A DNA stretch of 64,000 nt. It comes from a virus (taxonomy: Duplodnaviria; Heunggongvirae; Uroviricota; Caudoviricetes). The stretch lies in IMG/VR virus record IMGVR_UViG_2645727948_000011, one strand, 5' to 3'. Below are positions 1-21,500 of this stretch, piece by piece. The notes under the pieces were generated by a model. It saw only the letters and a list, made by a program, of their open reading frames with translations, had not been told where the DNA came from and ran no database searches. Within the stretch, counting starts at the first letter, position 1; each line of letters starts with the position of its first letter. The position numbers were made by a program, and so were the translations under genes.

Positions 1-242
1 AAGTTTGTAGCCTCTTGGCTGCTTAATAATGCTCGCCCATTGTCCACACCTCGTCCATCATCCCAACCTCGAATAAATTCGCCCCGTAGATCCGGCAATT
101 TATTAGTGGGGTAAACCTTTGCCAGATTTGGGTACTTTTCAGAAGAAAATGCTGCACCATTGCATTTCAGCCACCCCGTTGGTGGTGTGGCTGAGGGCCA
201 TGGAACAGGTACACCAACGGGCAGCGCCGAGCCTTCCCCTAA
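1..242 (-). CDS. tail-fibre variable C-terminal cassette, truncated by window edge
   Basis: Minus-strand frame open from ~263 to the window edge; first ~45 codons near-identical to the start of the 253..756 cassette, downstream part diverged but still tail-fibre-like (KLPDLRGEFIRGWDD motif). Confidence 0.55.
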
Positions 243-253
243 ACCAACGTTTT
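109..253. repeat. conserved ~145-bp block, copy 1 of 2 (5' end of tail-fibre cassette)
   Basis: Near-identical to 623..767 with a handful of substitutions; same orientation. Confidence 0.9.
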
Positions 254-259
254 CATGCT
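234..259. other. candidate cix-like invertase crossover site
   Basis: TTCCCCTAAACC-AA-CGTTTTCATGCT; left half-site resembles Gin/Hin half-sites (TTCCTGTAAACC) as I remember them; sits at the end of the conserved block. Confidence 0.4.
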
Positions 260-756
260 GCCCTTACGATGTAATTAAAAGCAACGTTGCGGGGGCGCAT
301 TGATATCCATGCCCCGGTAAAATTATCCTCTGCCGTCCTTTGAGTGCCTGTTATGGAGTTATCTGATGATGCTGGAACATAATCGCTATTATCTCCTGCT
401 TTAGGATTAGCAGGGTTTCCAACAGTTATAACAGAATCAGCAGTAGCATAAGCGATACCTACTTTGACATTAGTAGTCAGATCGACACCGTAATAATCCT
501 GCAAAGCTGTACGAATAAATGTTGCAGTCTGACCACTTAGCAATGAACGCCCTGTATCAATCCCTCTCGAATCATCCCAACCACGGATAAACTCACCGCG
601 TAAATCAGGTAATTTTAACGTTGGGTAAACCTTTGCCAGATTTGGGTACTTTTCAGAAGAAAATGCTGCTCCGTTACATTTCAGCCACCCCGTTGGCGGT
701 GTGGCTGAGGGCCATGGAACAGGTACACCAACAGGCAGTGCAGAGCCTTCCCCCAA
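253..756 (-). CDS. tail-fibre variable C-terminal cassette (Sv-like); frame opens with TTG inside the crossover site, not an independent gene
   Basis: 167-aa translation with GWLKCNGAAFS...YPNLAKVYP...LPDLRGEFIRGWDDSRGID, the pattern of Mu S / P1 S / P2 H fibre C-termini; in-frame stop only 4 codons upstream of the TTG. Confidence 0.75.
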   Translation of the reverse strand: MGEGSALPVGVPVPWPSATPPTGWLKCNGAAFSSEKYPNLAKVYPTLKLPDLRGEFIRGWDDSRGIDTGRSLLSGQTATFIRTALQDYYGVDLTTNVKVGIAYATADSVITVGNPANPKAGDNSDYVPASSDNSITGTQRTAEDNFTGAWISMRPRNVAFNYIVRAA

Positions 757-767
757 ACCAACGTTTT
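623..767. repeat. conserved ~145-bp block, copy 2 of 2
   Basis: Near-identical to 109..253. Confidence 0.9.
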
Positions 768-773
768 AGTCTT
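748..773. other. candidate cix-like crossover site next to the invertase gene
   Basis: TTCCCCCAAACC-AA-CGTTTTAGTCTT, 55 bp upstream of the invertase start; imperfect dyad around a central AA. Confidence 0.45.
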
Positions 774-827
774 AATCCCTACCTATACCAACGATGTATT
801 TTTAACTAAACAAAGAGGTTGTTTTTC

Positions 828-1400
828 ATGCAAATTGGCTACATTCGTGTGTCAACAAATGACCAAAACACAGATTTACAAAGAAATGCACTGAACTGCG
901 CAGGATGTGAACTGATTTTTGAAGATAAAATAAGCGGAACAAAGTCAGCCAGACCAGGCTTGAAAAAGCTGCTCAGAACGTTATCAGAAGGAGATACGCT
1001 GGTTGTCTGGAAGCTGGATAGGCTTGGCAGAAGTATGAAACACCTTATCACGCTTATAGAGGAGTTGCGGGAAAAAGGTGTTAATTTCCGTAGTCTGACA
1101 GACAGTATTGACACATCAACACCCATGGGGCGTTTCTTTTTTCACGTCATGGGGGCTTTAGCAGAAATGGAACGTGAATTAATTGTTGAGAGAACACTGG
1201 CCGGACTGGCAGCTGCACGCGAACAGGGACGCATTGGCGGACGTCGCCCGAAGTTGACAAAAGAACAACATGAGCAAATAGCGAGGTTGATCGAAAATGG
1301 CTACAGCAGGAAACAGTTGGCAATTATTTACGATATCGGTGTATCGACGATTTATCGTTATCATCCTGTAGAGAAGCGCCAAACTCAATCTGAGCTGTAA
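828..1400 (+). CDS. cin: Cin-family serine DNA invertase
   Basis: MQIGYIRVSTNDQNTDLQRNAL...LVVWKLDRLGRS...MGRFFFHVMGALAEMERELIVERT...GGRRPKLT: resolvase/invertase catalytic domain (Ser in RVSTND) plus C-terminal HTH; ATG at 828 with AAAGAGG RBS (the ORF track's TTG at 819 rejected). Confidence 0.95.
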   Translation: MQIGYIRVSTNDQNTDLQRNALNCAGCELIFEDKISGTKSARPGLKKLLRTLSEGDTLVVWKLDRLGRSMKHLITLIEELREKGVNFRSLTDSIDTSTPMGRFFFHVMGALAEMERELIVERTLAGLAAAREQGRIGGRRPKLTKEQHEQIARLIENGYSRKQLAIIYDIGVSTIYRYHPVEKRQTQSEL

Positions 1401-1835
1401 TTCTAATGCCGCGTCGGTGTAATTTATCTTGATAGAATAGGTACATTTATCGCGCGGCACATCAATTCGATGTATCTAGCGCCTGCTGACCGCTAATGAA
1501 AACTGTCCTCGAAATGTTGTCCCTAGCCCGAGACTAGGGTATCACCTCTGGAAAGCATACGCAGAACCTTTTTTAACCCAGGGTGCCCAGCCTTTTTGCT
1601 GCTCGCCTTATTCGCAAAAATTAGCTCACATCCTGCGCTTTCAAGTGCTTTTCACTGCATAGCTGTGTTTTGTTCATTTGTCTATATGCGTACATAGCCT
1701 ATTAGCATATTTTCTGCCCACTATCGTTATTTATTGCAAGCTACAGGTTTTAATTAACAAAACCAGTGTGTGTGGAAATCACAAAGTGCATACCGTTCTC
1801 AGATGTTGTTCAACTTACTGTTGTATAGGTAAAAA

Positions 1836-2099
1836 ATGACATTTTATGTACATATCGTGATGTTATCCCTTCTTGGTGGGGTGTATTCGTATTTGAGTGG
1901 GCTATGTGAAAACCGTTACGAGTCTTCATGCAAGAAATTGCTGGCCGAATGTATTTCCGCCGTACTTGCTGGCTTTATTGGCATGTATCTCGCGGAATAT
2001 AAGGATATGAATGAAAGCCTTCAGAGCTGCATGGTTCTTATTTTCAGCGCCAATAGCAGGCTTATTATTGAAGGTTCCAAAAGTCGGTTGAATAGGTAA
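1836..2099 (+). CDS. small hydrophobic membrane protein (possibly LydC-like)
   Basis: 87-aa ORF with a hydrophobic N-terminal segment; position upstream of the holin gene; weak RBS. Confidence 0.45.
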   Translation: MTFYVHIVMLSLLGGVYSYLSGLCENRYESSCKKLLAECISAVLAGFIGMYLAEYKDMNESLQSCMVLIFSANSRLIIEGSKSRLNR

Positions 2100-2173
2100 G
2101 TCTCTTATGCAACATAACCGGTTGAGAAGTTACTTTGCATACCATTACCTCCTGACAACGTAGGAGGGAACTT

Positions 2174-2503
2174 GTGCTTGACACACAGGAATTAGCTCCA
2201 GTTGCTATTGCGCTCCTGCTTTCAGTAATTGGTGGGATAGGCACGTTCCTGATGGATGTCCGAGACGGTCGCCAGTCTGGCAATTTGTTGGGATTGGTTA
2301 CGGAGATCTTTGTTGCAGTGACAGCTGGCGCGGTGGCGTACCTATTGGGGCAACACGAGGGCTGGGAGTTATCAATTACGTACTTAATGGTAACGATAGC
2401 CAGCAATAACGGTCATGAGGTGATTTCAGGGATGAAACGAGTGAATATCGATAGCATTCTGAATGTTCTTACAAGTTTGGTGAAAAAGGGAGGCGGGAAA
2501 TGA
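2174..2503 (+). CDS. lydA: holin LydA-like
   Basis: 109-aa membrane protein, GTG start preceded by AGGAGGG; length and position match P1 LydA. Confidence 0.7.
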   Translation: MLDTQELAPVAIALLLSVIGGIGTFLMDVRDGRQSGNLLGLVTEIFVAVTAGAVAYLLGQHEGWELSITYLMVTIASNNGHEVISGMKRVNIDSILNVLTSLVKKGGGK

Positions 2504-2943
2504 TTGGCTGGGGTGTATGCGTTCTTGCGTTAGCCTTAGCCGATCGCTATTTGCTAAAACGCAAGGACATCACGCATTTAGAACTTGGTGATGTGGAAAT
2601 TAAACCGGGTTTCATCCGGGTGCCGTTCAAATACCGGTCTAAATTCCCGTTTTTGCGCGGCGCAACGGTCAGATATTGGATCCGCGATGTTCAGAAGCCG
2701 ACGACAGTGATTGAAGGCGAACAACGTTGTTTGACGTCGGCTGAACAGGGCGAAAACAGTGAATGGTTGTACATACCCACTGAATATATGGGTAAAGGAG
2801 AGCGACTGTGGCATTTCAACGTCATGGTTACGCATGGCGACTCGTTCATTAACCCGTTGTATCGGATTTTCCCTGTTACTCAGCAAATCCGCAGAAGTTA
2901 CGTAATAAATCTCGCACAGGATGTGTCAGATGACGAAAAATAA
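2500..2943 (+). CDS. lydB: antiholin LydB-like
   Basis: 147 aa, 4-nt overlap with lydA; N-terminal hydrophobic segment. Confidence 0.65.
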   Translation: MIGWGVCVLALALADRYLLKRKDITHLELGDVEIKPGFIRVPFKYRSKFPFLRGATVRYWIRDVQKPTTVIEGEQRCLTSAEQGENSEWLYIPTEYMGKGERLWHFNVMVTHGDSFINPLYRIFPVTQQIRRSYVINLAQDVSDDEK

Positions 2944-3532
2944 GTATGCAACGGTCGATTTTGACCAGGTTAATGAAAAGGGGCTGAAATCCCTTATCGC
3001 GGCGATCAATAAAACCGGTGTTACGGTAATTGAGGTTGACTCCAGCAACCGCGCAACAACGAAAGATGGCGTTAAAGTTAAAACCGCAAAGCTGGTTCTT
3101 AACGACGGACAAATTCTTGCCATACAGGTAAACGATACTGGCGATATATCGTCTGTGAGGCTGAATGGAAAAGCTATTCCTAACGCTCAATCGCCGGATA
3201 TCAAGACGCTTGGTACCGTCATGGGGCAAGCGGCCCGCAAAAACTCCGCAAAATTCCAGAAATCACTGATCGCCAAAGCGAAACGTGTTGCCAATCCGGT
3301 AGACAAGAAACCGGCAGTAAAATCCAACTTTCAGCGCCTGCAAGAGGCAAAACAGCGGAATGCTCAGGTGGTTGCCGCTTATAAATCAGCGCAGAACTCG
3401 GTGTCTTTCAATCAACAGCAGATCACTGATTTGCGGGCGAAGCTGGATAAGGAGACAGGCCGACTCAATAACGAAAAGGCCCGAAATGGCGAACTCAAAC
3501 GCCGTCTTAAGCAACTGAAAGCAGGAAATTAA
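2921..3532 (+). CDS. hdf: Hdf-like Dar-system protein
   Basis: 203-aa ORF immediately upstream of darA; coiled-coil C-terminus; assignment positional. Confidence 0.55.
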   Translation: MCQMTKNKYATVDFDQVNEKGLKSLIAAINKTGVTVIEVDSSNRATTKDGVKVKTAKLVLNDGQILAIQVNDTGDISSVRLNGKAIPNAQSPDIKTLGTVMGQAARKNSAKFQKSLIAKAKRVANPVDKKPAVKSNFQRLQEAKQRNAQVVAAYKSAQNSVSFNQQQITDLRAKLDKETGRLNNEKARNGELKRRLKQLKAGN

Positions 3533-3533
3533 C

Positions 3534-5453
3534 ATGGAACAGTTCAATATCAATAAAGGGGTGACGATCAAGCCTGGGCTTGACGTGCTTCCCCCGCCAG
3601 TGACTGATGATGAATATCGCGCATTAATGGCCGGTGAGGACCGCTATCTGATGACGGAATCCAACACCCTGGAGGAAATCGAGGCTACGTTCTTCTATGA
3701 CACGCCGATCCACTGGTGTGCTACGGATTTACTGGAGGCGATTAGTTCTACTCGTTTGCAGTTACACCGGACCATGCAGGCATTTGTCCGGGCATTGAAC
3801 CAGAAGCTGAATGGTACCGGAATCTCTGCGGGGAGTGATAAAACGGGGGATGTGGCCCAGAGCGGCGCGCGCGCGATCGGCGGCGCTGAAATTGGCCGGG
3901 CACGTAACGTTAACGGGCTGCCGGTCTTGCCAGCCATTATTCCGCTCAGTGATGGTCAGACTATCAGCATTCTGTTTCATAGCCCGACAGCGGAAAACCG
4001 GATCACCAATAGCGATACGCTGGTTGCTTTCCAGTTCTTACTGAATAAAAAAGACGTTACTCACACCGTTGCTCCGATGAGTGGACGTGATATGACGCTG
4101 GCGCAGGTCACCATGAAACTTGCCAACCTTGCAGAGAAAAACTCGGCAAAATTCCAGCGTGCGCAGAAGAAGAAAAAAGCCCTTGTTGATGAAATAACCC
4201 AACTACAGGCTGACAGTGACCAGAAAGAGGATGCCATGAGCGACCTCGCGGATCAGGTGGCAGCGGTAGAAGGGCAGAAGGCAGATCTGGAGCAGAAAAT
4301 TAACGCTGTTGCATCGGAAGCGGATTCTCTTTATGAAGAGAATGAGCGTTTGCAGACGGAGATTGATCAGCTCAATCGCACAGGTGGGCGCGATACCATT
4401 GATCCAGCGGGGATGACTGGTGGGCACTCGCGCGCGCTGACGGATCGCCTTGCCAGTATCAAAAATCGTATGCATATGAACGGGGAAGTGACGCTCAGTA
4501 ATGGAGCATCAATGAAGCAATTCATTGAGGACGGCGAAGGGTATATCCAGTTAACCGATCCGGATGGCAGCGTATACATGATCAAGGCTAAATCCATACA
4601 GGGTGTGGACATGGCAGATGCGATCGGCAAGCTGTTTAAAGCCTATAAAGCGGGTAATGTATCGGAATACCTGGTCCAACCAGAAGAACATAAACCGGAA
4701 AACGTCGAACCTGAACCAGCGGAGGATACCGGTAGCTCTTCGCCTGAACCAGAAGTCTCTGTAGGTGCATATCGATATGCCCTGCAAATGCGTCCGGCGG
4801 CCCCTGGCGCAATACCTGAAGGTAACAAAGCAATTCTGCCGCGCCCTGATGAAGGTGACCCGTATTATGAATATGCACGCTACGGCATTGCTACTTACGA
4901 TACCCCGCTTTCTGATCAGCAAATGAGTGAGTACGACCTGAAGTTATTGCCTCGCGAGGATTCTTTCGACTTCCTGGCGAAGACACTTACTAATGGTCCG
5001 TTTGGCAAATATGCACAAAAAGCTCTGGAGCTGGCCACCAGCTCACCAGACGAGTTCCGCGTAATGCTGAAAACTCAGTTTCAAAAAACTTTCCCCAATA
5101 TTGCGTTTCCTGGGGGCGCTGGCACCGAGAAAATGGTGCAGAGCATGATCAATGCATTGCAGGCCGAAGTCGGTGAGATTACTCAGCCAGAACCGGCCCC
5201 GGCACAGCCTGATGAAACGGTTAGCGAAGCAGATGCAGAGGCTAATAAAGCCATTGAATATCTCAATAACGTGATGGATATACAAAGCACTGACATGGCG
5301 GAGATCCGTAACGCCCGGGGCAATGTCCGGGAAGCGATTGCAGCCCTTCAGGCTGCCGGACGTTTTGAGGAAAACGAAGAGCTGGTTAACGGCGCAGCTC
5401 GCCACCTGGCTGATCTGTTGGTAGCAATCCAGAAAGCGGGGGTAGCGGCATGA
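3534..5453 (+). CDS. darA: DarA-like internal head / antirestriction protein
   Basis: 639-aa ORF; length and operon position match P1 DarA. Confidence 0.75.
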   Translation: MEQFNINKGVTIKPGLDVLPPPVTDDEYRALMAGEDRYLMTESNTLEEIEATFFYDTPIHWCATDLLEAISSTRLQLHRTMQAFVRALNQKLNGTGISAGSDKTGDVAQSGARAIGGAEIGRARNVNGLPVLPAIIPLSDGQTISILFHSPTAENRITNSDTLVAFQFLLNKKDVTHTVAPMSGRDMTLAQVTMKLANLAEKNSAKFQRAQKKKKALVDEITQLQADSDQKEDAMSDLADQVAAVEGQKADLEQKINAVASEADSLYEENERLQTEIDQLNRTGGRDTIDPAGMTGGHSRALTDRLASIKNRMHMNGEVTLSNGASMKQFIEDGEGYIQLTDPDGSVYMIKAKSIQGVDMADAIGKLFKAYKAGNVSEYLVQPEEHKPENVEPEPAEDTGSSSPEPEVSVGAYRYALQMRPAAPGAIPEGNKAILPRPDEGDPYYEYARYGIATYDTPLSDQQMSEYDLKLLPREDSFDFLAKTLTNGPFGKYAQKALELATSSPDEFRVMLKTQFQKTFPNIAFPGGAGTEKMVQSMINALQAEVGEITQPEPAPAQPDETVSEADAEANKAIEYLNNVMDIQSTDMAEIRNARGNVREAIAALQAAGRFEENEELVNGAARHLADLLVAIQKAGVAA

Positions 5454-5815
5454 CACTATCAGCTATTGAGTTAATGGATCTCAGCGATAAGTTGGATGCT
5501 CTGATGTCCAAAGCGGCGACCGCGAGTGGCATGGAGTTGCTGGATATCAGCGATGAAATTGACCAGATCATGCAACAGATGGGGTACGGCGCGTCCGGCG
5601 GTGGTAGTGGCGAGGAAAAACAACCTTCGGAACATGATGGTGTGCCAAAACTGGTTGCTGATTTCCTGGCTGATAAATTCGTCGATCAGAGCACCGATGC
5701 ATTTATCGGTACCTTGCAGGATTTGAGTCAATATGTTGGCACATACATCGACCTGGACCAGGTTAAACAGCACACGGCGGCATGGATAGCCGCCAACATT
5801 AAAGAGGCAGCATAA
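5450..5815 (+). CDS. ddrA: DdrA-like protein
   Basis: 121 aa, 4-nt overlap with darA; positional. Confidence 0.55.
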   Translation: MTLSAIELMDLSDKLDALMSKAATASGMELLDISDEIDQIMQQMGYGASGGGSGEEKQPSEHDGVPKLVADFLADKFVDQSTDAFIGTLQDLSQYVGTYIDLDQVKQHTAAWIAANIKEAA

Positions 5816-5827
5816 GGCGTAACAGGG

Positions 5828-8815
5828 ATGAGCTTAAGCGATCAGGTGGTAATGGCCACCAGCATAGAAACGCTGATCGAGCTGCTAAAGAACCTGCCCG
5901 ATTATGGGCGGGTTTCGTATGTGGTGACAGCGAAGGGAGACGAGGTAAAAACAGCGTTTGATATCGTCGATGCCTCAGTTCTTTTGGTATCCAATACTCT
6001 GGATGGGAAAATTAATCCAGACTATCCCCAGGAACTTCAGCCGCGCGACCGGACCCGCGCATCCAGCCTTCTTCAGGTTAACCAGATATCCAAAGATTTG
6101 CGGCCTGCTCAGCTTACTGATTCCGGTTTATCCAGCCATGGTGCGCCGATAATTGGTGAGGACAATGCCGTTGAGTCAGGTAATGGACGGACCATGGGGA
6201 TCATCAAAGCCTATCAGGACGGCAATGCGGATCGGTATCGTGAGTACCTGATTGAACATGCGACCGAATTCGGCATACGACCTGAAAAGGTTGAATCAAT
6301 GACGGCTCCGGTACTGGTGCGCCGCCGGTTAACTAAGGTTGATCGCGTTCAGTTTGCCAAGGACTCAAATATTTCTGATCTTCAGGAAATGGCAGCCAGT
6401 GAAAAGGCTTTTGTTGATGCCGACAGCATAACACCGGCGATGATGGCGTTGTTTAACCCGTCAGAAAGCGGAGATCTGCTTAGCCGCAGTAATGACGCGT
6501 TTATTCGCGGATTTATGACGCAAGTTGGTGCCACACAGGCGGCTGGCCTTGTAACTGAAGATGGGCGACCAACACGGCAACTTGTAGACCGTATACAAAA
6601 CGCGATCTTTGCCAAGGCATATAAGGATGCGCGCCTGGTAAGGATGGTTGCAGAAGAACCTGATCCGGACATGCGTAATGTTCTGACGGCGCTTAATGCG
6701 GCAGCCAATGATTTTGTCCAGATGCAGGCTTTATCAGGAGAAGCGCACAAGCAGGCTGTGACAACTATTGTTGATGGCATTGAGACAGCGGATAGCCTCG
6801 ATAAAAAGGCGCTGGCGGCATTGAAAGATGCGGTAGACCTGGTAAGGCAATCGAAGGAGTCAGGCCAACATATTACCGATGTTATTGCTCAGGGGGATAT
6901 GTTCAGCGAAACAGCCCCGGAAGTGAAAGCTCTCGCGTTGTTCATCGTCGCGAATAACCGTAGCGCGAAGCGTATGGCCACCGCCTTTAAATTGATGGCT
7001 CAACGTATCAATGATGAGTTACAGCACCAGGGCCAGGCGCTCGGGGATATGTTTGGCGGCGGCGATGTGTCGTTACAGGATATCCTTCGCCAGGTATCTC
7101 AGGAACTGGAAAACGAAGGTATGCAAGGGATATCCGGCGGTCTTTTCGAGTCAGCTTCCGGCGGTAGTTACAACGGTGTTGCTCCATATACCAGCTTGCT
7201 ATTACATCGGGCATCCGGCATCAAAGACATTATTCATCTGATCAGGCTGCTATCCCGCACCGATCCCCAGGATGAGCAGCTTGTACAAGTGCTTGCGCAT
7301 TTTGTCCGAATGCCTGTTGCCGACGTAAAAAAATGGTGCCGATTATTCGGTATCAGCAATTCGTTACTTCGCGGATTGTTAAATTACGCATCCTCCCTTG
7401 GGCGCGACGGCTTTGATGAGATAGCGCAGGCGATAAAAAACGGAGATATGCCACCAGCTATTGACTGGTTTTCCATTCGCCCAACCAGGGTGAAAGCATT
7501 CCTTAGCGCGGCGCAATCAGCATCACCATTGGCAGAAATGGTTCAGAGGTTGTCGCTCATATTCACAGACCATACCGCGTTGGGTGATCTGACTCTGGAC
7601 GAGATGAAAGAAGCCTCCATTCAGTGGGCCGATCAACAAAATGAGGTTAACTCTGACTTCTTGCCAGCATTCAGGAAGGCCGTTAGTAAAGCTGATGATG
7701 CCCGTGGAATTCTGAGGGCATTTAAGGCATTGCAAAGTCAGGTTAATAAACATGTCGGTGATATCGATGGGGTAACGGCGGAAGGCAGGGATATCCTTAA
7801 AGAGCACGGCATAACGCCAGAGTTTATTGATGAGATCAGGACTGATATGCAGCGTGAGGTCGTATCGTCCCTGCAAATCGTAGCCAGAGCGTTGGCGGAT
7901 GCTAATCCGAAGAGTGCGGCCATTGTTAACCGGGTTATTGGTGATATTGAAGCATCGGAGGGCATGGGGGCGCTGAAACTCTTCCTTTCGCGAGCGTTTA
8001 ATCCTAACGGCAATATTCTCCCTGGCATTATTGGTGAGGCTAAAAAGTATGTCAGTGAAGAAGAACTTTCGCAGCTTGACCAACTACTTAAGCGATTCTC
8101 ATATAACCCGCAGACACGCTGGCAAATGAATCAGCGAAGTATGGGTTCGGTCCACGAGAAAGTGTTATCTGCCATGAACAGTGCGATCGCCAACTCATCC
8201 GTATCTGAAGAAAAAGCTCTTGAGTGGGCCGACTCTTTTATCACGGAAGAAGTGGAAGAAGCCCGCGCTGGACAGAATGGTGGGATAGACCTGCGCAAGG
8301 AACTTGCTGATATTTATCGCCTGACCGGCGGTAAAATTTCGACCTTATCAAAGGTGGTTCACCACCAGGGAAGGGCATATGCAAATCTTAATGGTGTTGT
8401 TGCTGTCAATTTGAACGATGAAAATGCAAGTGCACTGTGGCACGAGCTGGGTCATCATCTTGAGTACAGTAACCCTGGTTTGTTAGAGAAAGCCCGGTCA
8501 TTCCTGAAGGCCAATGTTGAAGGGGATAAGCCATCTTTCGTCAATATCGGTGGGCGTGGCAAGCCTGAATGGTGCTTCAGATCTCGATTGAGTAATATTT
8601 ATATGGCGAAGGTATACCCGCCAGCCTCAGTAAGTAACACCGGGAAAATTCGGCAGAAATCACCGACTATTTCCAAAACGTCAGCAACGGAAGTATTCTC
8701 TATGGCTCTTCAGTTGTATCATGACAAAGAGGCCGCTGCCGCATCACTGATGAATGGTGACGGATTGCTGGAACTGTTATTAGGTGTGGCAAAGGAGCTA
8801 AATAATGCAGATTAA
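5828..8815 (+). CDS. ddrB: DdrB-like large Dar-system protein with C-terminal HExxH motif
   Basis: 995-aa ORF; WHELGHHLE (zincin-like HExxH) near the C-terminus. Confidence 0.65.
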   Translation: MSLSDQVVMATSIETLIELLKNLPDYGRVSYVVTAKGDEVKTAFDIVDASVLLVSNTLDGKINPDYPQELQPRDRTRASSLLQVNQISKDLRPAQLTDSGLSSHGAPIIGEDNAVESGNGRTMGIIKAYQDGNADRYREYLIEHATEFGIRPEKVESMTAPVLVRRRLTKVDRVQFAKDSNISDLQEMAASEKAFVDADSITPAMMALFNPSESGDLLSRSNDAFIRGFMTQVGATQAAGLVTEDGRPTRQLVDRIQNAIFAKAYKDARLVRMVAEEPDPDMRNVLTALNAAANDFVQMQALSGEAHKQAVTTIVDGIETADSLDKKALAALKDAVDLVRQSKESGQHITDVIAQGDMFSETAPEVKALALFIVANNRSAKRMATAFKLMAQRINDELQHQGQALGDMFGGGDVSLQDILRQVSQELENEGMQGISGGLFESASGGSYNGVAPYTSLLLHRASGIKDIIHLIRLLSRTDPQDEQLVQVLAHFVRMPVADVKKWCRLFGISNSLLRGLLNYASSLGRDGFDEIAQAIKNGDMPPAIDWFSIRPTRVKAFLSAAQSASPLAEMVQRLSLIFTDHTALGDLTLDEMKEASIQWADQQNEVNSDFLPAFRKAVSKADDARGILRAFKALQSQVNKHVGDIDGVTAEGRDILKEHGITPEFIDEIRTDMQREVVSSLQIVARALADANPKSAAIVNRVIGDIEASEGMGALKLFLSRAFNPNGNILPGIIGEAKKYVSEEELSQLDQLLKRFSYNPQTRWQMNQRSMGSVHEKVLSAMNSAIANSSVSEEKALEWADSFITEEVEEARAGQNGGIDLRKELADIYRLTGGKISTLSKVVHHQGRAYANLNGVVAVNLNDENASALWHELGHHLEYSNPGLLEKARSFLKANVEGDKPSFVNIGGRGKPEWCFRSRLSNIYMAKVYPPASVSNTGKIRQKSPTISKTSATEVFSMALQLYHDKEAAAASLMNGDGLLELLLGVAKELNNAD

Positions 8816-9113
8816 AATCGCAGCGCCATTAGGCGGAGATGCCATTATCGAATTTGATGATAATGAAGAAGTTTCCGGGCGTTTAAGCATTATCTCCGGT
8901 GACATTACCGAGGACATGATCGCTGAAGCCATAGCTGGGGCAAATCCCAATAGCTATATGGGATTCGTTAACACCCTTGATGCTCCCGCAAGTGATGTTC
9001 TCCGAACGCTGCATCTTTACGCTGGCTGGTTTGTTGATTGGCCAGCAGTAGATGGTGGCGATGAGGACGACGACGATGATTTTGGTGATCATGTAGACCA
9101 GATCGTATATTGA
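8805..9113 (+). CDS. small acidic protein, last gene of the darA operon
   Basis: 102 aa ending in an Asp/Glu-rich tail (GGDEDDDDDFGD); overlaps ddrB by 11 nt. Confidence 0.5.
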   Translation: MQIKIAAPLGGDAIIEFDDNEEVSGRLSIISGDITEDMIAEAIAGANPNSYMGFVNTLDAPASDVLRTLHLYAGWFVDWPAVDGGDEDDDDDFGDHVDQIVY

Positions 9114-9116
9114 AGA

Positions 9117-9141
9117 AATCCCGCCAATTGGCGGGATTTTT
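9117..9141. terminator. bidirectional rho-independent terminator
   Basis: AATCCCGCC-AATT-GGCGGGATT followed by TTT; sits between convergent operons. Confidence 0.75.
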
Positions 9142-9144
9142 ACC

Positions 9145-10239
9145 TCACGAGAAACTCTTTTCTGATGTCAGCCAACAGTGCTCGTGCATATCTCTTGGTG
9201 GTTTTTCGACAAATGCCTCTTCAGCCACATCCTGCCAGGGGATTTGTTTAGCCCATTCAGCTATAGCGTTATGGTTTGCCGAGAATAACGGTATTGTATA
9301 GGCCTTCAGCCAGTCTAATGTGCTGGAGTTGTGTTTTTTAGCGTGATGTTTCGCATGGTGTTTGGCGATCACGATCGTAGGCACTACCCATTTACTACCG
9401 TCAGTCATTGTGAAGTGCATATTACGGGGAACAGATGACTTTTCCATCAACTCCCGAATCCCGGGGAATTTCCCCAAGATCAATCGGCGATATTCATCGC
9501 TATTGCGCCCACCAAACTCTTTGGCTTTGAATTCAAGATATGCTTCAGAAACGAGAGGTGAATCCTCTGTGTTTAGAGTTATCGCCGTGAAAAAACCAGC
9601 AGGATTGTTTTTACTATGGGCCAACCGGTGATGCGAATCATAAAAGTACCCTTTCTCGCGTTCCGATGGTTTCGACAGCAACAGCAGGCGCGAGTCATAA
9701 TTGGTTAAATTGCCAGTTATCACTGCATGAGCGCGATCGCTGATTTCCGCCGAGTTAATAACGATGAAAAGATCGTGCGGTCCAGTAAAACCAGCCAGAG
9801 ACTCTTCGTTATTCAGACAATAGGTTATATAGACGCATCCCCATGTTTCACTGATATGCACCAACCCTTTGTCAGGGTGTATTCTGAAATAATTGCCAAG
9901 AAAAGGGTGTTTTTGGGTAACTCGCTCCCAATAACGGAACATATAGTCAATTATTGTTTTTCGACTATCGTTAATCGCAGGAGAAACAACCACTGTACGG
10001 GAGCACGAATACAGTATTGTTTGCAGGATGCTAATCACTGCCACAATAGAGGTTTCCCCAATACCATGTGGTGTGGTGGCAGTGACTTTGGCTCCGGTGT
10101 TCTTTATCGAGTTAATAATTTTTGCTTGATGAGGTGTTAACTCAATATCAAGCAACTCTTTTGCTGCCAGTTCCCAATTGTCTTTATACCGTTCTATCAG
10201 TGCTAACCAGGCAGATTCATTCTGTATACGATTAATCAC
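9145..10239 (-). CDS. terminase large-subunit paralogue: ATPase-domain homologue with degenerate Walker motifs, no nuclease domain
   Basis: Aligns by eye to the N-terminal ~300 aa of PacB (29477..30961): shared ITGxLT, RxLLLSxPxxxxGYFYDxHH, TAITLNxExSPLV; Walker A GHGTGKS becomes PHGIGETS, Walker B IIDEAS becomes VINSAE; His-rich C-terminus HHAKHHAKKH. Confidence 0.7.
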   Translation of the reverse strand: MINRIQNESAWLALIERYKDNWELAAKELLDIELTPHQAKIINSIKNTGAKVTATTPHGIGETSIVAVISILQTILYSCSRTVVVSPAINDSRKTIIDYMFRYWERVTQKHPFLGNYFRIHPDKGLVHISETWGCVYITYCLNNEESLAGFTGPHDLFIVINSAEISDRAHAVITGNLTNYDSRLLLLSKPSEREKGYFYDSHHRLAHSKNNPAGFFTAITLNTEDSPLVSEAYLEFKAKEFGGRNSDEYRRLILGKFPGIRELMEKSSVPRNMHFTMTDGSKWVVPTIVIAKHHAKHHAKKHNSSTLDWLKAYTIPLFSANHNAIAEWAKQIPWQDVAEEAFVEKPPRDMHEHCWLTSEKSFS

Positions 10240-11880: not shown

Positions 11881-12438
11881 ATGAAGGGAAAAACAGCCGC
11901 AGGAGGCGGTGCAATTTGCGCTATCGCGGTGATGATTACCATCGTGATGGGTAATGGCAATGTGCGAACCAACCAGGCGGGGCTTGAGCTGATTGGTAAC
12001 GCTGAAGGTTGCCGACGTGATCCATACATGTGCCCGGCGGGGGTATGGACTGACGGGATCGGTAATACACACGGGGTAACGCCGGGTGTGCGAAAAACCG
12101 ACCAGCAAATCGCCGCTGATTGGGAAAAGAATATCCTGATCGCTGAACGCTGTATTAATCAGCACTTCCGGGGCAAAGACATGCCCGATAATGCCTTCAG
12201 TGCAATGACAAGCGCGGCATTCAATATGGGATGCAATAGCTTACGGACCTACTACAGCAAAGCGCGAGGCATGCGAGTAGAAACGTCCATCCACAAGTGG
12301 GCGCAGAAAGGGGAATGGGTGAATATGTGTAATCATCTCCCTGATTTCGTGAACAGTAACGGCGTGCCCCTGCGAGGTTTAAAGATTCGCCGTGAAAAAG
12401 AACGCCAGCTTTGCCTGACGGGGCTTGTCAATGAATAA
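11881..12438 (+). CDS. lyz: SAR-type endolysin (lysozyme)
   Basis: MKGKTAAGGGAICAIAVMITIVMG (Gly/Ala-rich signal-anchor-release segment) then lysozyme-like core; 185 aa; GAGGT RBS. Confidence 0.9.
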   Translation: MKGKTAAGGGAICAIAVMITIVMGNGNVRTNQAGLELIGNAEGCRRDPYMCPAGVWTDGIGNTHGVTPGVRKTDQQIAADWEKNILIAERCINQHFRGKDMPDNAFSAMTSAAFNMGCNSLRTYYSKARGMRVETSIHKWAQKGEWVNMCNHLPDFVNSNGVPLRGLKIRREKERQLCLTGLVNE

Positions 12439-12729
12439 ACTCCGGCAGCTCCGCCGACTTTCGACAATGAAGTTATCGCTGGCGGCGATAGTTTTTGACT
12501 CGATTTTCATGGCGGTATATGTGCTCAATGAGACGTGGCCACTGGAACCGCTATTGTATGCCGGGCTTCGGCTGTGCCTGACATTTTTGAGCATGGCTGC
12601 GAGATTGATGCAGCAGAAAGAAACCGCTTCAGATTGTCCACGCCGCGCGGTGCGCAAATATATGGCACGAAGGCGAAGGCGATAATAGTTAACGAGAACC
12701 CCGGCAGCTGCCGGGGTTATTTTTGGTGG

Positions 12730-15460
<2,731 letters not shown>

Positions 15461-15527: not shown

Positions 15528-18500
15528 ATGAACAAGCTATCTATGGGGGTGTTTCGCTGTTCAAGTGTCAGCGAAATATTGAAATACATTAGGGCAATAA
15601 CATCTCACCGAGCGCCGATTAAATACGGCGTGGAAAAGGTGGAAGGCAAAAGCTATGACCGACTGCGCCGTGAGGCGAATCAGAAGGCGATAGATTTGCT
15701 TAATTCGCTGGTGGACGGCGCGACACTGACAGATGAACAGCGCCAGATCCTGGCTGGGTACACCGGTGAAGGCGGCATTGGCGGGTCCGTCTCCGAATAT
15801 TACACACCAAAGCCGATCGCTGAAGGTGTCTGGGAGATCATGAAGCTCTACGGCGCGGACGTAGGTAACACTCTGGAACCATCGGCGGGAACCGGCGTTT
15901 TTAATGAGACAAAACCGGTTGGTACGGTGATGACCGCGACTGAGATCAGCAGTGTTTCCGGTCGTATAAACCAGCTGTTGCACCCGGAAGACAGCGTACA
16001 GATTTCTCCGTTCGAACAACTGGCTGTAAGCACGCCTAACGATTCATTCGACCATGTTGTGGGTAACGTTCCGTTCGGTGGTCGTGATAACACACGCAAC
16101 ATCGATAAGCCTTACGCAGAAGAAACGGACATGGGTTCTTACTTCATGCTCCGCATGCTGGACAAGATAAAGCCAGGCGGATTCATGTGCGTGATTGTGC
16201 CGCCGTCCATTGTTTCAGGTTCAAACATGAAGCGGTTACGCCTGCGCCTATCACGGAAAGCTGAATTTCTTGGTGCCCACCGCTTGCCTACCGGTACTTT
16301 TGACGCAAACGGGACCAGTACAGTTGTTGATGTGGTGCTGATGCGCAAACATCCGGCAGAGATGGCTGAGAAAATCCCCCTGGTGGATGAAAGCACTCTC
16401 GAATCGGCAAATGTGCTTTGGCCAACGTTTATTTCTGGCAAGTGGTTTGAAAAGGACGGCCGCCGGTTTGTTCATGGCACCCAGGAAAAGGGCTTCCAGG
16501 GGCGTATTGAGGTTCGTGCCGACGGTCAGATTGATAACCAGGCTCTTAAAGCGAAGCTGATTCATCGTTTCGAAAGCCGTATCGACTGGTCTTTGCTCGA
16601 TATGGCTGAACCGTCACCGACCGCAGACGTTGTTGGTGAAGGGGAAATGCGCCTGATTAATGGCGTATGGCAAAAATATGCTGGTGGTCGCTGGATTGAA
16701 GCTGATGCCGGGAAGGAACTTAAGATCGATGCTGCCAGTTATGGCGCGGATAGCTGGGAGGCTCTTCAGCGTAACCTGACTACAACAGAAGGCCGTCTCG
16801 GCATGACATTTACCCAGATGGCAAATGTCCGCGATAAGTACACCACATCAATCAGCGACGATATGGTGCAGCTGGTGGACTGGATTAACAGCCAGCCTGA
16901 AAAATACCGTGAACGCTTGTATCGCGGGGCGATGATTGGCCGGATGTTAATTGAATATCAGGACATGAAGGCCGCCGGGCATAGTGCTGAACAAATCGAA
17001 CAGCAGCGCCTTTCTCTGGTATCCCGTTTGCAGGCAGAGATTGACCGTTTTGGTAACCCTGGTCGCGGTCCGATAGCTAAATTATCGGGAAGCGGTGCGC
17101 GCGCCTGGTTTGCTTTCCGTGGTGCAATTAAGCTGGATGGCACTATTTCTGACGAGCTGACAGGAAAGCTGGTTACGCATGATTCCAGCGCCAGTTATGA
17201 CTCCACCAGCTATCAGGACACCCTGCGTTATCTCTATAGCGATCTTACCCGCGATCCAATCCAGCTCGATGATTTCCGCCTTGCGTTTACCGGCGAATTG
17301 CCAGCCAGTGATGAAGAGTTGCTTAATTTATTGGCCAGCACTCCTGGTATTGCGGTTTCACCGTATGGCGGGATTGTTCCGTTCGCCCGCGCCACCAGCG
17401 GCGACATTAACGAGATAGTGGCTCCAAAACAGGAATTCCTCGCCACGCTCCCCGACGGTCCAGTAAAGAACAACGTCCTTAATCAGCTGGCAGCGATCGA
17501 AGAGAAGCGCATCAAGACGCCAGCAGAGAATATCCGCTTTAAGCTCAATAGCCGTTGGTTCGACCGTTCCGTCATTCTGGAGTTTTTGCAGGAAAACGGC
17601 TATCCGGATCTGCGCTATGTGCAGTCAGTGCAGCTGGAAGGCGACGAAATGGTTTCTGACACCTATCACGGTGGTGATGGCCTGTTCGTCGGGCACCGAT
17701 ACGGTGTCGTCCAGCGCAAGGATAAAGAAACAGGCGAGATCCGCTACGAGTGGGACCGTAAATCAGGTGAAAACGCGACCGGGTTCCCGGCACAGCTGGA
17801 AAAGTATCTCAATGGTGCGCGTATCGGTGGCAAAGATAGCGCGACGGCGAACGGCTACCGCGAGCAGATGGCACTGCTTGAGGACCAGTTCAATAAGTGG
17901 ATCAAGACGCACGATCGCTACGATGAGCTGGTTGCCAAATACAACGATGTGTTCAATAGCAATATCCCGTATGAACACTCTGGCGATCCGCTTGGGTTGA
18001 AGGGATTAAGCGGTAAGCGACAGCCATTTGATTACCAGAATAGCGAGGTGCGCCGACTGTCCGAAGATGGGCGCGGCATCCTGGGCTTCGGTACCGGGCT
18101 GGGTAAAACCACGACCGCGCTGGCGCTTGAGGCGTTCAACTATGAGAACGGTCGTTCCACCCGTACTGCGTATGTAGTGCCTAAATCAGTGCTGGAAAAC
18201 TGGTATTACGAAGCAAAAGAGTTCCTGAGTGAAGAGGCATTCAGTAACTACCTGTTCGTCGGTCTTGATGTGCTGATGGATGGCGATCAGATTCGCCAGG
18301 TGCCGGTGCTCAATGAGAACGGTAAACCTGTTCTTGGTACTGATGGCACTCCAGTTATGCGCGATGCTCTTAAGCTGGCAGATGAAGCCACTATCACGGC
18401 GCGGATGAACGCGATCCCGCACTCAAATTACCGTGCAGTCGTGTTTACCAAAGAACAATACGCCCGCATTCCGCTACGTGATGACACCGTAGATGAGCAT

Positions 18501-21500
18501 GCACAGGATATGCTTTATGACTTCGTTGCTGCCGGGCGCGTAGCCAGCGCAATGGACTCCGACTCCCACCGCAAAGAGGCCGCGCGTCGCCGGGTATTGT
18601 CGGAGTATTCAGATACCGGCACCGAAAAAGCAGAGAAGTATCCGTACTTTGAGGATATGGGCTTCGATAGTGTGATCGCCGACGAAGGTCACAACTACCG
18701 CAATAGCTATAAAAATGGTCGCGAAGCGTCACAACTGGCCTATCTGCCCACCAGCGCGGTGGCGCAATCGGCGCGGGATATGGCAATCAAAAACGCGTAC
18801 TTGATGAAAAAGAATGGCGGGCGCGGGCCGGTTCTCCTGACTGCAACGCCAGTCGTTAACACCCCGATCGATGCATACAACATGCTTTCTCATGTTCTGC
18901 CGAAGGAATACTGGCAGAAGATGGGGATCTACGGTCCTGATGACTTCGTTAAATTCTTCGGCAAGACCAGGCTGGAAACGGTACAGAAAATCAGCGGTGA
19001 AGTTGAAGAAAAAATGGCGCTGGTGGGCTTTGAAAACCTTGATGCGCTGCGCGGCATATTCCATCGCTGGACAACGCTTAAAACGGCGGAAGACGTTAAG
19101 GATACCGTGGAGATCCCGGAACTGGACGAACACCAGCAGGATGCACCACTTACGGAAGAACAACTGGCGGCGTATGAAGAATTGCGTCAGCAGGCGGAAG
19201 CGGCAGCCAAAGCCAACAATGGCGTAACGACCTCGGTCAATGAAGACGGCGTGATTGAGCACGAGAAAGCCCGTCCGATCTTCTCAATAATCAGGGATAT
19301 GGACCGCGTATGTACTGACATGGACCTGTACTATCGCAGGATCACCTATCGTTTCCTGCCGGAGTACGCCGATGCGGTGCAGCAGCTGGCGGACAGTTTG
19401 CCTAAACAAGCCACCAGCGAAGACGACGACAGTGATGATTCGATCACGCAGCAATCGCAATACTCCCTGATAGATAAGGGCGAGTTTATTCAGTTGCAGG
19501 TACCGGAAGCATTTGAGCAGGAAGTGAATAAGCGCCTGGCCAAGTTTGGCATTGACGAACAGACCGTAACTCACCCCGTTACGCCCAAATACGCGAAGCT
19601 GATTGCCACGCTGAAGGAGTTTTTCCCGGAAGGTAAGCAAATCATCTTCACCGATGAAAAAACGCAACACCAGAAGCTCAAGCGCATTATCTGCAATGCT
19701 CTTAACCTTGAACCTTCAAAGGTGGGGATCCTGAATGCTCAGACGGTTGCCGAGGCAGGTAAAACCGGTAAGAAACTGAAAGCGGTTAAACCGCCGAAAG
19801 AGCTACCGGATGAACCAACAGATGCACAGATAGCGAAATACAACGAGCAAATGGCTCTGTATGACGCCTATATCGCGCAGCAAAATGAAATGTCGCTGGG
19901 TGGGCTGGAAAAGATTGCTGCCGACTTCCAGGAGGGCCGGACTCCGATCATCATCTGCAACAAAAAGGCAGAGGTGGGTATCAACCTGCATCGAGGAACG
20001 ACTGACATCCATCATCTGACGTTGCCATGGACACCAGCCAGTATCGCACAGCGTAACGGTCGCGGTGCCCGAGTTGGCTCCAACCGTGCAAGCGTTCGCG
20101 TTCACTACTACTGCGGCAAGGGTTCTTTCGATGAATACCGACTGAAGACGCTGAAGCGTAAAGCAGGCTGGATCTCCGATATCCTCCGTTCAGATAAGTC
20201 AGAAATGGAGAACGCCGACGCCAACGATATGATCGAAATGCAGATGTATACCGCTAAGGATGATGGCGAACGTCTGGCAATGATGCAGGTTCAAATGGAT
20301 AAGGCGAAAGCCGCGCAACGCGCTCGCCAGAAAGAACAGGCTACTATCGACCTTCAGAACTACATCAAGGCGCAGCACGCAGCTGGCGAGGATGTGGAGG
20401 TACTTACCGCTGAATTAGAGCGAAGCAAAGCGGAACTTGAAAAGACCACCGCCGACGTCGCCAAATTCAAACAGGCGGTAATGGCCAAAGCAGCTGATAA
20501 CGCAGACTGGAAAGCCCGCTGGGGTAGCGTCCATCACACAGACCGTACGTTGTTAGCACAGTATCGCGCGTCGTTGAAAAGCGCCATTCAGCGCAAGGCT
20601 AATATCTCTCAAGCCATCTCCCGCTATGAGAAATTATTGAACCGTACTCAGAAGGCCGCGACGGATATCAAACGCCTGCGCCCGCTGGTGGAGGATGCAA
20701 TAAATAAAGGCATTCTGGATGTTGATCCTGATCTGGTTAACCATGCGAATGAGTTCCTTGTTATCGGCGATCGCTCATGGCGTGTAGGCCAATACTACGA
20801 TTGTGCCGGTGATATCGTTCGCATTAAGTCGCTGGGCTTCGACAGCCAGCGCGCAGACGTGGAGATCATCTTTACCTTCAAAGGCACCAAATCGGGTAAC
20901 TGGGATGTGAAGACGCTGGATAAACAGGTTGATGTAACTCCCGATGAAGATGCTGTTATGCAGAAAATCAGTGGTGGCGTCTCCATCGCCGGGATTAACG
21001 ACATCATTTCCTGTGACGATTTCTACCGTTTCCAGCAGCGCGGCATGATCAAAATCACTGACTCATACGGCGTTCAGACTACAGAGTCAGGCTATAGCAT
21101 TGATTTTGTTGGTACCTATACGGACCCACTGAAGCATGCGGTTTACCCGGATCGCCGTGACGGCGCGCTGAAGTCGTCAATTGCAAAATGGGTGCTTGGT
21201 ATGATGTCGGAAGGGAATAACCGCCAGATCCGTTCGGCAGAAACATTCCTGGTTGAACTGTTTGGCTCCAATTATGGCGATGTAATCGCGTCATACGGAG
21301 ATACGCTATCCCCTGAAGCAATTCAGGAGAAAATAGCGGATGCGATCGCCAGAATGCCGGAAAAAACAAGCCAGGGGGCTACTCGTAACGGGGATTCTGA
21401 ACTTGAAGTCACCAATGCCATTTTCGGTACCAATGAGTTCCGGGCGTCAGATTATGAGATCACCACAGCACAGTTTGGCACCATTGGCATTTACAGCAAT

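Follow-up and report, generated by a model that had tools for sequence, protein, structure and literature searches.

The closest described relative of the locus analysed here is the Min system of plasmid p15B from E. coli 15T-, which was reportedly characterised by Sandmeier, Iida, Arber and co-workers in 1990-1992 and is said to be deposited as GenBank X62121. Its six crossover sites reportedly belong to four single cassettes and a central segment. The P segment of e14 in E. coli K-12 (stfP-tfaP / tfaE-stfE, with the Pin invertase gene pinE) is a simple two-state switch with two each of sites, cassettes and assembly genes. The Cin system of P1 and the Gin system of Mu are also two-state. Each of their Sv cassettes, about 500 aa long, is accompanied by its own U chaperone. 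In P1, the invertase gene cin is directed into the C segment, and cixL lies across its 3′ end. Like the locus described below, the R64-type shufflon (Rci, pilV) has several short cassettes that provide alternative C-termini for one constant gene and are exchanged by inversion only, although it uses a tyrosine recombinase and 19-bp sfx sites and acts on a conjugative-pilus adhesin, not a phage fibre.

We refer to the whole 64,000-nt stretch of DNA under analysis as the window. It corresponds to bases 3212-67211 of contig JHQV01000037.1 (GCA_001265165.1; 67,211 bp). Public assemblies were searched with the exact 167-aa protein of a complete cassette near the left end of the window, which yielded ten contigs. 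One of these, L009, carries window 1-10000 at positions 10756-757 with 100.000% identity. As the window starts at contig base 3212, the 3,211 bases to its left could also be read (L009 10757-13967).

At its left edge, the window carries two tail-fibre tip cassettes in tandem on one strand, followed by an invertase gene (Table 1). A preceding sequence-only reading of the window had described two near-identical 145-bp blocks, at 109-253 and 623-767, that end in 26-bp sites. A pairwise comparison bore this out, with 137 of 145 positions identical (94.5%). The blocks belong to a wider direct repeat, D1, in which 197 of 232 positions are identical (85%), and the likeness ends exactly past ...TTCCCC[T/C]AAACCAACGTTTT. 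The complete cassette, type A, consists of a conserved Collar head, a variable middle and a conserved C-terminal ...RPRNVAFNYIVRAA. It matches Pfam PF07484 (Collar, E=3.8e-15), and its PDB sequence matches were the receptor-binding tip of T4 gp37 (2XGF) and a short tail fibre. The head and tail of type A are common to StfE of e14. The partial cassette, type Q, is open from about position 247 to the window edge, and the source contig gives the entire cassette as a predicted gene of 136 aa (L009 10533-10943). Both frames had been said to open only at the site, at a TTG with a stop four codons upstream. This holds for type A, the TTG of which lies within the site; for type Q the TTG stands, and the closest upstream stop is eight codons ahead of it.

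The sequences of the p15B sites and of other Din-family crossover sites were taken from Table 3 of PMC3241671. Aligning the window sites with cix, gix, hix and mix had been proposed as a check, and the result was clear: both are p15B mix sites, one of them without a single mismatch (Table 1). Against pix, cix, gix and hix, they matched at just 15-19 of 26 positions (16-17 for cix). The outer half of the site at 234-259 overlaps the TGA stop of the preceding cassette. A search for further mix-like half-sites with up to two mismatches found none in the 64-kb window beyond these two sites.

Table 1. Features at the invertase-proximal end of the array (window coordinates)
Feature	Position	Strand	Remarks
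Type Q silent tail-fibre tip cassette, 5′ part	1..247	-	begins at crossover site, leaves window at left edge
Head block copy 1, conserved	22..253		encodes Collar domain; ends in cassette-side half-site; direct repeat D1
26-bp mix crossover site	234..259	+	TTCCCCTAAACC-AA-CGTTTTCATGCT; 24/26 vs p15B mixMr''N' / mixO''P'
Type A silent cassette, complete, 167 aa	253..756	-	ORF
Head block copy 2, conserved	536..767		direct repeat D1
Invertase-proximal mix site	748..773	+	TTCCCCCAAACC-AA-CGTTTTAGTCTT; 26/26 vs p15B mixMl''L'
Din-family serine DNA invertase (Min), 190 aa	828..1400	+	Pfam Resolvase E=2e-51 plus HTH_7
Putative Fis-dependent recombinational enhancer	846..917	+	matches position of enhancer annotated in P1 cin nt 19-90
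P1-type cin 5′ remnant, degenerate, outside active switch	1532..1710	-	no intact frame

The array continues to the left of the window. Leftwards from min, the order is A, Q, O, H, M, C, a tail-fibre assembly gene, B and the contig end. The first six are cassettes of six types in the same orientation, 136-167 aa long and each preceded by a site, and four of them (O, H, M and C) were added by the leftward 3.2 kb. The assembly gene (203 aa, PF02413) is found on the source contig about 2.1-2.7 kb to the left of the window's first base, on the strand opposite to the six cassettes. The absence of an adjacent assembly gene in the sequence-only reading was therefore an artefact of the window edge, since the gene sits in the middle of the array. 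Its protein is listed as 'Tail fiber assembly protein homolog, TFAB_ECOLX' and is 75% identical to TfaE, and about 22% identical to U and U' of P1. Cassette B, upstream of the assembly gene and convergent with the other cassettes, is cut by the contig end. In sum, six sites, every one of them direct, and at least seven cassettes were counted on the source contig, which stops inside the array and bears neither the S constant part nor an inverted partner site. Leftward extension, another check that had been proposed, thus uncovered a multi-cassette array, and the ordinary two-cassette C segment, named beforehand as the contrary outcome, is not what lies there. The point where the contig stops coincides almost exactly with the conserved head of B, and the draft contigs L006, L008 and L010-L012 likewise stop within the array. 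Such breaks are typical of the assembly problems caused by repeated heads or mixed isomers.

The protein collection lists the exact invertase sequence as Q05517_ECOLX (UniRef name). We take both this name and TFAB_ECOLX to be p15B entries. The catalytic serine sits in the motif YIRVSTNDQ, and the protein is 78% identical to PinE of e14 and 73% identical to P1 Cin. The ATG lies 54 nt past the invertase-proximal site, in good agreement with the distance of 55 bp given previously. The gene points away from the array, with the site upstream (5′) of it, as in e14. Its first 90 nt are 80% identical to P1 cin at the nucleotide level vs 67% for the whole gene, and a Fis-dependent recombinational enhancer probably resides within the 5′ end of min.

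Downstream of min, the window is P1-like. The genes are of P1 type (lydC-like, lydA, lydB and a 639-aa DarA), and the P1 late promoter LPdar recurs without a mismatch at window 2127. P1 31289-31836, which takes in lydC, the promoters of cin and the first ~177 nt of that gene, aligns with window 2081-1532 at 82% identity on the opposite strand. The resulting cin remnant adjoins the intact min and includes the stretch corresponding to the enhancer of P1. It is compatible with a Pin/Min-type module having replaced a Cin-type one. A truncated second invertase gene has reportedly been noted in p15B too.

To define the general plan of such arrays, cassettes were typed across 16 related loci, which gave 18 types at 93% protein identity. 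All arrays follow a common plan: the S constant part is succeeded by cassettes directed away from S, then by the central segment, then by cassettes directed towards S, and lastly by min. The central segment is double-headed (B → assembly gene ← C) and is central in all arrays. On the coding strand, a cassette module consists of the half-site GGTTTRGGGGAA, a Collar head of ~200 nt, a variable body, a conserved C-terminus with the stop, and an outer half-site that serves the next cassette. Junctions in the 16 loci all follow one pattern: an outer half-site that depends on position, then the core TT, then GGTTTRGGGGAA, the constant half-site on the cassette side. The outer half-site comes in three forms: TTCTTGATTACC ends the S constant part, GGCATRAAAACG overlaps the stop codon of the cassette before it, and AAGACTAAAACG stands beside min. 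The first of these, seen in relatives at the site carried by S, is complementary to the mixQ''R' half-site GGTAATCAAGAA. The site is translated in frame as ...NVGLGEG.... Array size varies among relatives from 4 sites (L001) to 11 (L019), and inverted partner sites, the S-borne one included, are present in every complete relative.

Some further features of these arrays were observed. A 52-nt inverted repeat (85% complementary), made up of the conserved 3′ termini of B and C, flanks the assembly gene, e.g. at L001 8030-8081 / 8696-8747. Only about 5 bp separate the assembly gene stop from the end of C, so that neither a terminator nor another assembly gene would fit in between. In L019 (NZ_LR882977.1), min-lydC-lydA-lydB occurs in a second copy with three more cassettes before it (12314-14754 and 16117-18232). 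This is due either to genuine duplication or to misassembly of the invertible region.

On these grounds, we consider it very probable that the locus is the invertase end of a multiple DNA-inversion system of Min type, carried by a P1-like phage-plasmid. With p15B it shares the 26-bp mix sites (one at 26/26), the names Q05517_ECOLX and TFAB_ECOLX, the P1-like backbone and the layout of S constant part, double-headed central segment, single cassettes and a min gene that points away. Unlike the six sites of p15B, six direct sites lie on one side here, with at least seven cassettes. The differences from the prototype are quantitative only; the mechanism is already known, the identification of Min adds no new one, and the array is larger than that of p15B. 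For another P1/P7-like plasmid, pMCR_SCKP-LL83, the equivalent region was reported to match the min region of p15B with 99% identity over 92% coverage (PMC5786510). The sequence-only reading had favoured a multiple-inversion array of the p15B Min kind over the two-state switch of P1, and both the mix sites and the four further direct cassettes agree with this. Its wording, that the element resembles a multi-site system, was right as to the multiple sites and understated the rest, as the element is very probably the Min system itself.

The other systems resemble the locus in part. That of e14 shares the invertase and TfaE at the identities given above, the StfE cassette head and C-terminal ...RPRNIAFNYIVRAA, and the position and orientation of the invertase beside a silent cassette, and it differs in its two-state design. 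P1 Cin and Mu Gin have in common with the locus a Din-family serine invertase, an enhancer in the invertase gene, an in-frame crossover site in S and host-range switching, and P1 also the phage backbone. Their cassettes are much longer than those found here (136-168 aa), and their assembly proteins are only about 22% identical.

By homology and the published work on p15B, the system would operate as follows. The Min serine invertase, aided by the enhancer in its own 5′ coding region, would recombine only sites in inverted orientation, exchanging strands at the AA/TT core and inverting all DNA between the two sites. A new cassette would thereby be joined in frame, through ...NVGLGEG..., to the S constant part, and the order of silent cassettes would be reshuffled. 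The outcome would be a swap of alternative receptor-binding tips on the phage tail fibre. Each inversion should keep the common plan, with the central segment flipping and single cassettes changing sides. Sites in direct repeat, to which the two of the window belong, should not recombine with one another, so that a tandem array could persist. We derived that n single cassettes allow n+2 fibre tips and n!(n+1)×2 isomers, i.e. 240 isomers for n=4; 240 is reportedly also the published number for p15B with its six sites. On the source contig, the central segment is accompanied by at least five single cassettes, which implies at least seven alternative tips and at least 1,440 isomers.

Rearrangement was observed in relatives, and the source contig itself has six direct sites only. 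Across the 16 related loci, the same cassette types recur in other positions and in both orientations. Type A adjoins min in four of the ten contigs retrieved (L003, L006, L008 and L009), takes second to fourth place in the remaining six, and is found in both orientations relative to min. It also forms the C-terminal ~170 aa of full-length S in L001 (974-aa S) and in L016, while types H, N or L are fused to S in other plasmids. The earlier proposal that the cassettes can be expressed only by fusion to a constant fibre N-terminus is well supported by the two S proteins that end in type A.

Three RefSeq isolates, 2020N21-110, 2020N21-110-15 and 2020N21-110-24, were especially informative. Their flanks are 100% identical over 3 kb on the left and 10.2 kb on the right and, given these flanks and their names, they appear to be clonal. 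Each has six sites, and the five inter-site segments are permuted and inverted among them. For instance, the 1,581-bp central segment lies in reverse at 99.9% identity, and one cassette segment of 487 bp is found inverted on the opposite side at 99.4% identity. The maps of these isomers are valid for order and orientation, not base by base: in a comparison with an exact signed permutation, order and orientation fit, and indels and one segment do not. The indels lie in the arrays of L014 and L015, and the segment, 442 nt in L014, has no good match in the parent. They are probably consensus errors from mixed isomers.

The mismatches between flipped segments concentrate in the conserved heads, which fits either noise in a consensus of mixed isomers or some gene conversion or homologous exchange. 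This pattern bears on another explanation, in which the rearrangements of the relatives were driven mainly by RecA-dependent recombination between the 145-230-bp heads and not by the invertase. The heads are long and 85-95% identical, and the base beside the core (G/A) differs within one cassette type, which suggests exchange or conversion inside the heads. However, cassettes would be lost by recombination across the many direct heads, and hundreds of plasmids nevertheless maintain arrays of 6-11. All junctions retain the succession of outer half, core and cassette half expected of core exchange, and the sites are identical to mix sites. Inversion in p15B, moreover, is said to have been assigned to Min by Sandmeier et al. 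in 1990-92. We therefore regard RecA as a very improbable main agent.

That the array is decayed and inactive, i.e. a set of tandem duplicates of the tail-fibre 3′ end frozen beside an invertase gene, is scarcely credible. The direct orientation of all sites on the source contig, and the frameshifted or truncated cassettes of some relatives, are what such an array would offer. Against it, the invertase ORF is intact, with a full-length Resolvase match that includes the serine motif, both window sites are intact, and a lineage with the identical invertase protein (WP_001165547.1) displays different isomers. The break of the contig inside the array is the expected outcome of short reads on mixed isomers or repeats.

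An ordinary two-cassette C segment of P1 (Sv-U / Sv'-U') with one cassette duplicated has next to no chance of being correct: the P1-like backbone (lydA, lydB, darA, the exact LPdar and the cin remnant) speaks for it, but there are six tandem cassettes of six types with one assembly gene, the invertase has the opposite orientation to P1 cin, with a site 5′ of the gene vs cixL at the 3′ end of cin, and the sites match cix at 16-17/26 vs mix at 24-26/26. The P1 Cin two-state C segment as such was refuted by cassette number, the single assembly gene, invertase orientation and the mismatch to cix. An R64-type Rci shufflon was ruled out, the adjoining recombinase being a serine resolvase/invertase.

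Accepting a Min system, we considered how its single assembly gene is expressed. Every productive inversion must flip the central assembly gene, which places it antisense to the late S operon in about half of the isomers. Among the eight complete arrays examined, it was antisense to the S operon in four (L013, L010, L016 and L014) and co-oriented with S in the other four (L001, L005, L007 and L015). Exact 19-mers of the P1 late promoters were found only at LPdar in the window and at LPs, upstream of gene R, in relatives. No P1 late-promoter motif was found in or beside the array with up to four mismatches, and sigma-70-like matches that might drive an antisense assembly gene were at or below the shuffled expectation. 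In the virion-derived record vB_EcoM-673R5, which is full of frameshifts, the assembly gene is co-oriented with S; in vB_EcoM-813R1, also a record full of frameshifts, the site pattern had no matches with up to four mismatches.

It is conceivable, though in our view rather unlikely, that these arrays hold an under-described layer of host-range control. This would combine the expansion to 9-11 cassettes with one of three arrangements: an unrecognised promoter on the min side, Collar tips that need no chaperone, or isomers of which half are fibre-defective. The expression of the single assembly gene when inverted relative to the fibre operon might be the sole part that is new. In the literature, we found no description of these larger arrays, and the surveys of P1-like plasmids that were consulted call the region just 'variable'. 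Arrays of 9-11 cassettes occur in present-day P1-like plasmids, which often carry resistance.

The system is widespread. About 202 plasmid records matched, and 129 complete E. coli genomes had a near-full-length match. Phage-plasmids of the P1 type occur commonly among E. coli, Salmonella and Klebsiella, and often bear resistance genes, e.g. mcr-1 and blaCTX-M (PMC5786510, PMC9603915). The array sets the host range of these elements. Annotation pipelines call its cassettes 'phage tail protein, partial', and assemblies break or turn chimeric inside it. Recognition of Min can therefore aid both annotation and the quality control of assemblies.

Two regions next to the cassettes are variable as well. 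The S constant part of L001 contains five perfect 300-nt tandem repeats (Phage_fiber_2; L001 5352-6851), and the length of S is 504, 774 and 974 aa in L013, L005 and L001, respectively. As the constant part differs so widely in length, fibre length also varies, independently of the tip cassettes. On the other side, past the darA/ddrB block, the cargo differs among relatives: a Tad2-like gene (PF11195), an anti-phage dGTPase or ompC is found there (L003/L006/L008 148-825; L014-L016 about 19300-20400). This spot near the array looks like a variable defence/counter-defence hotspot.
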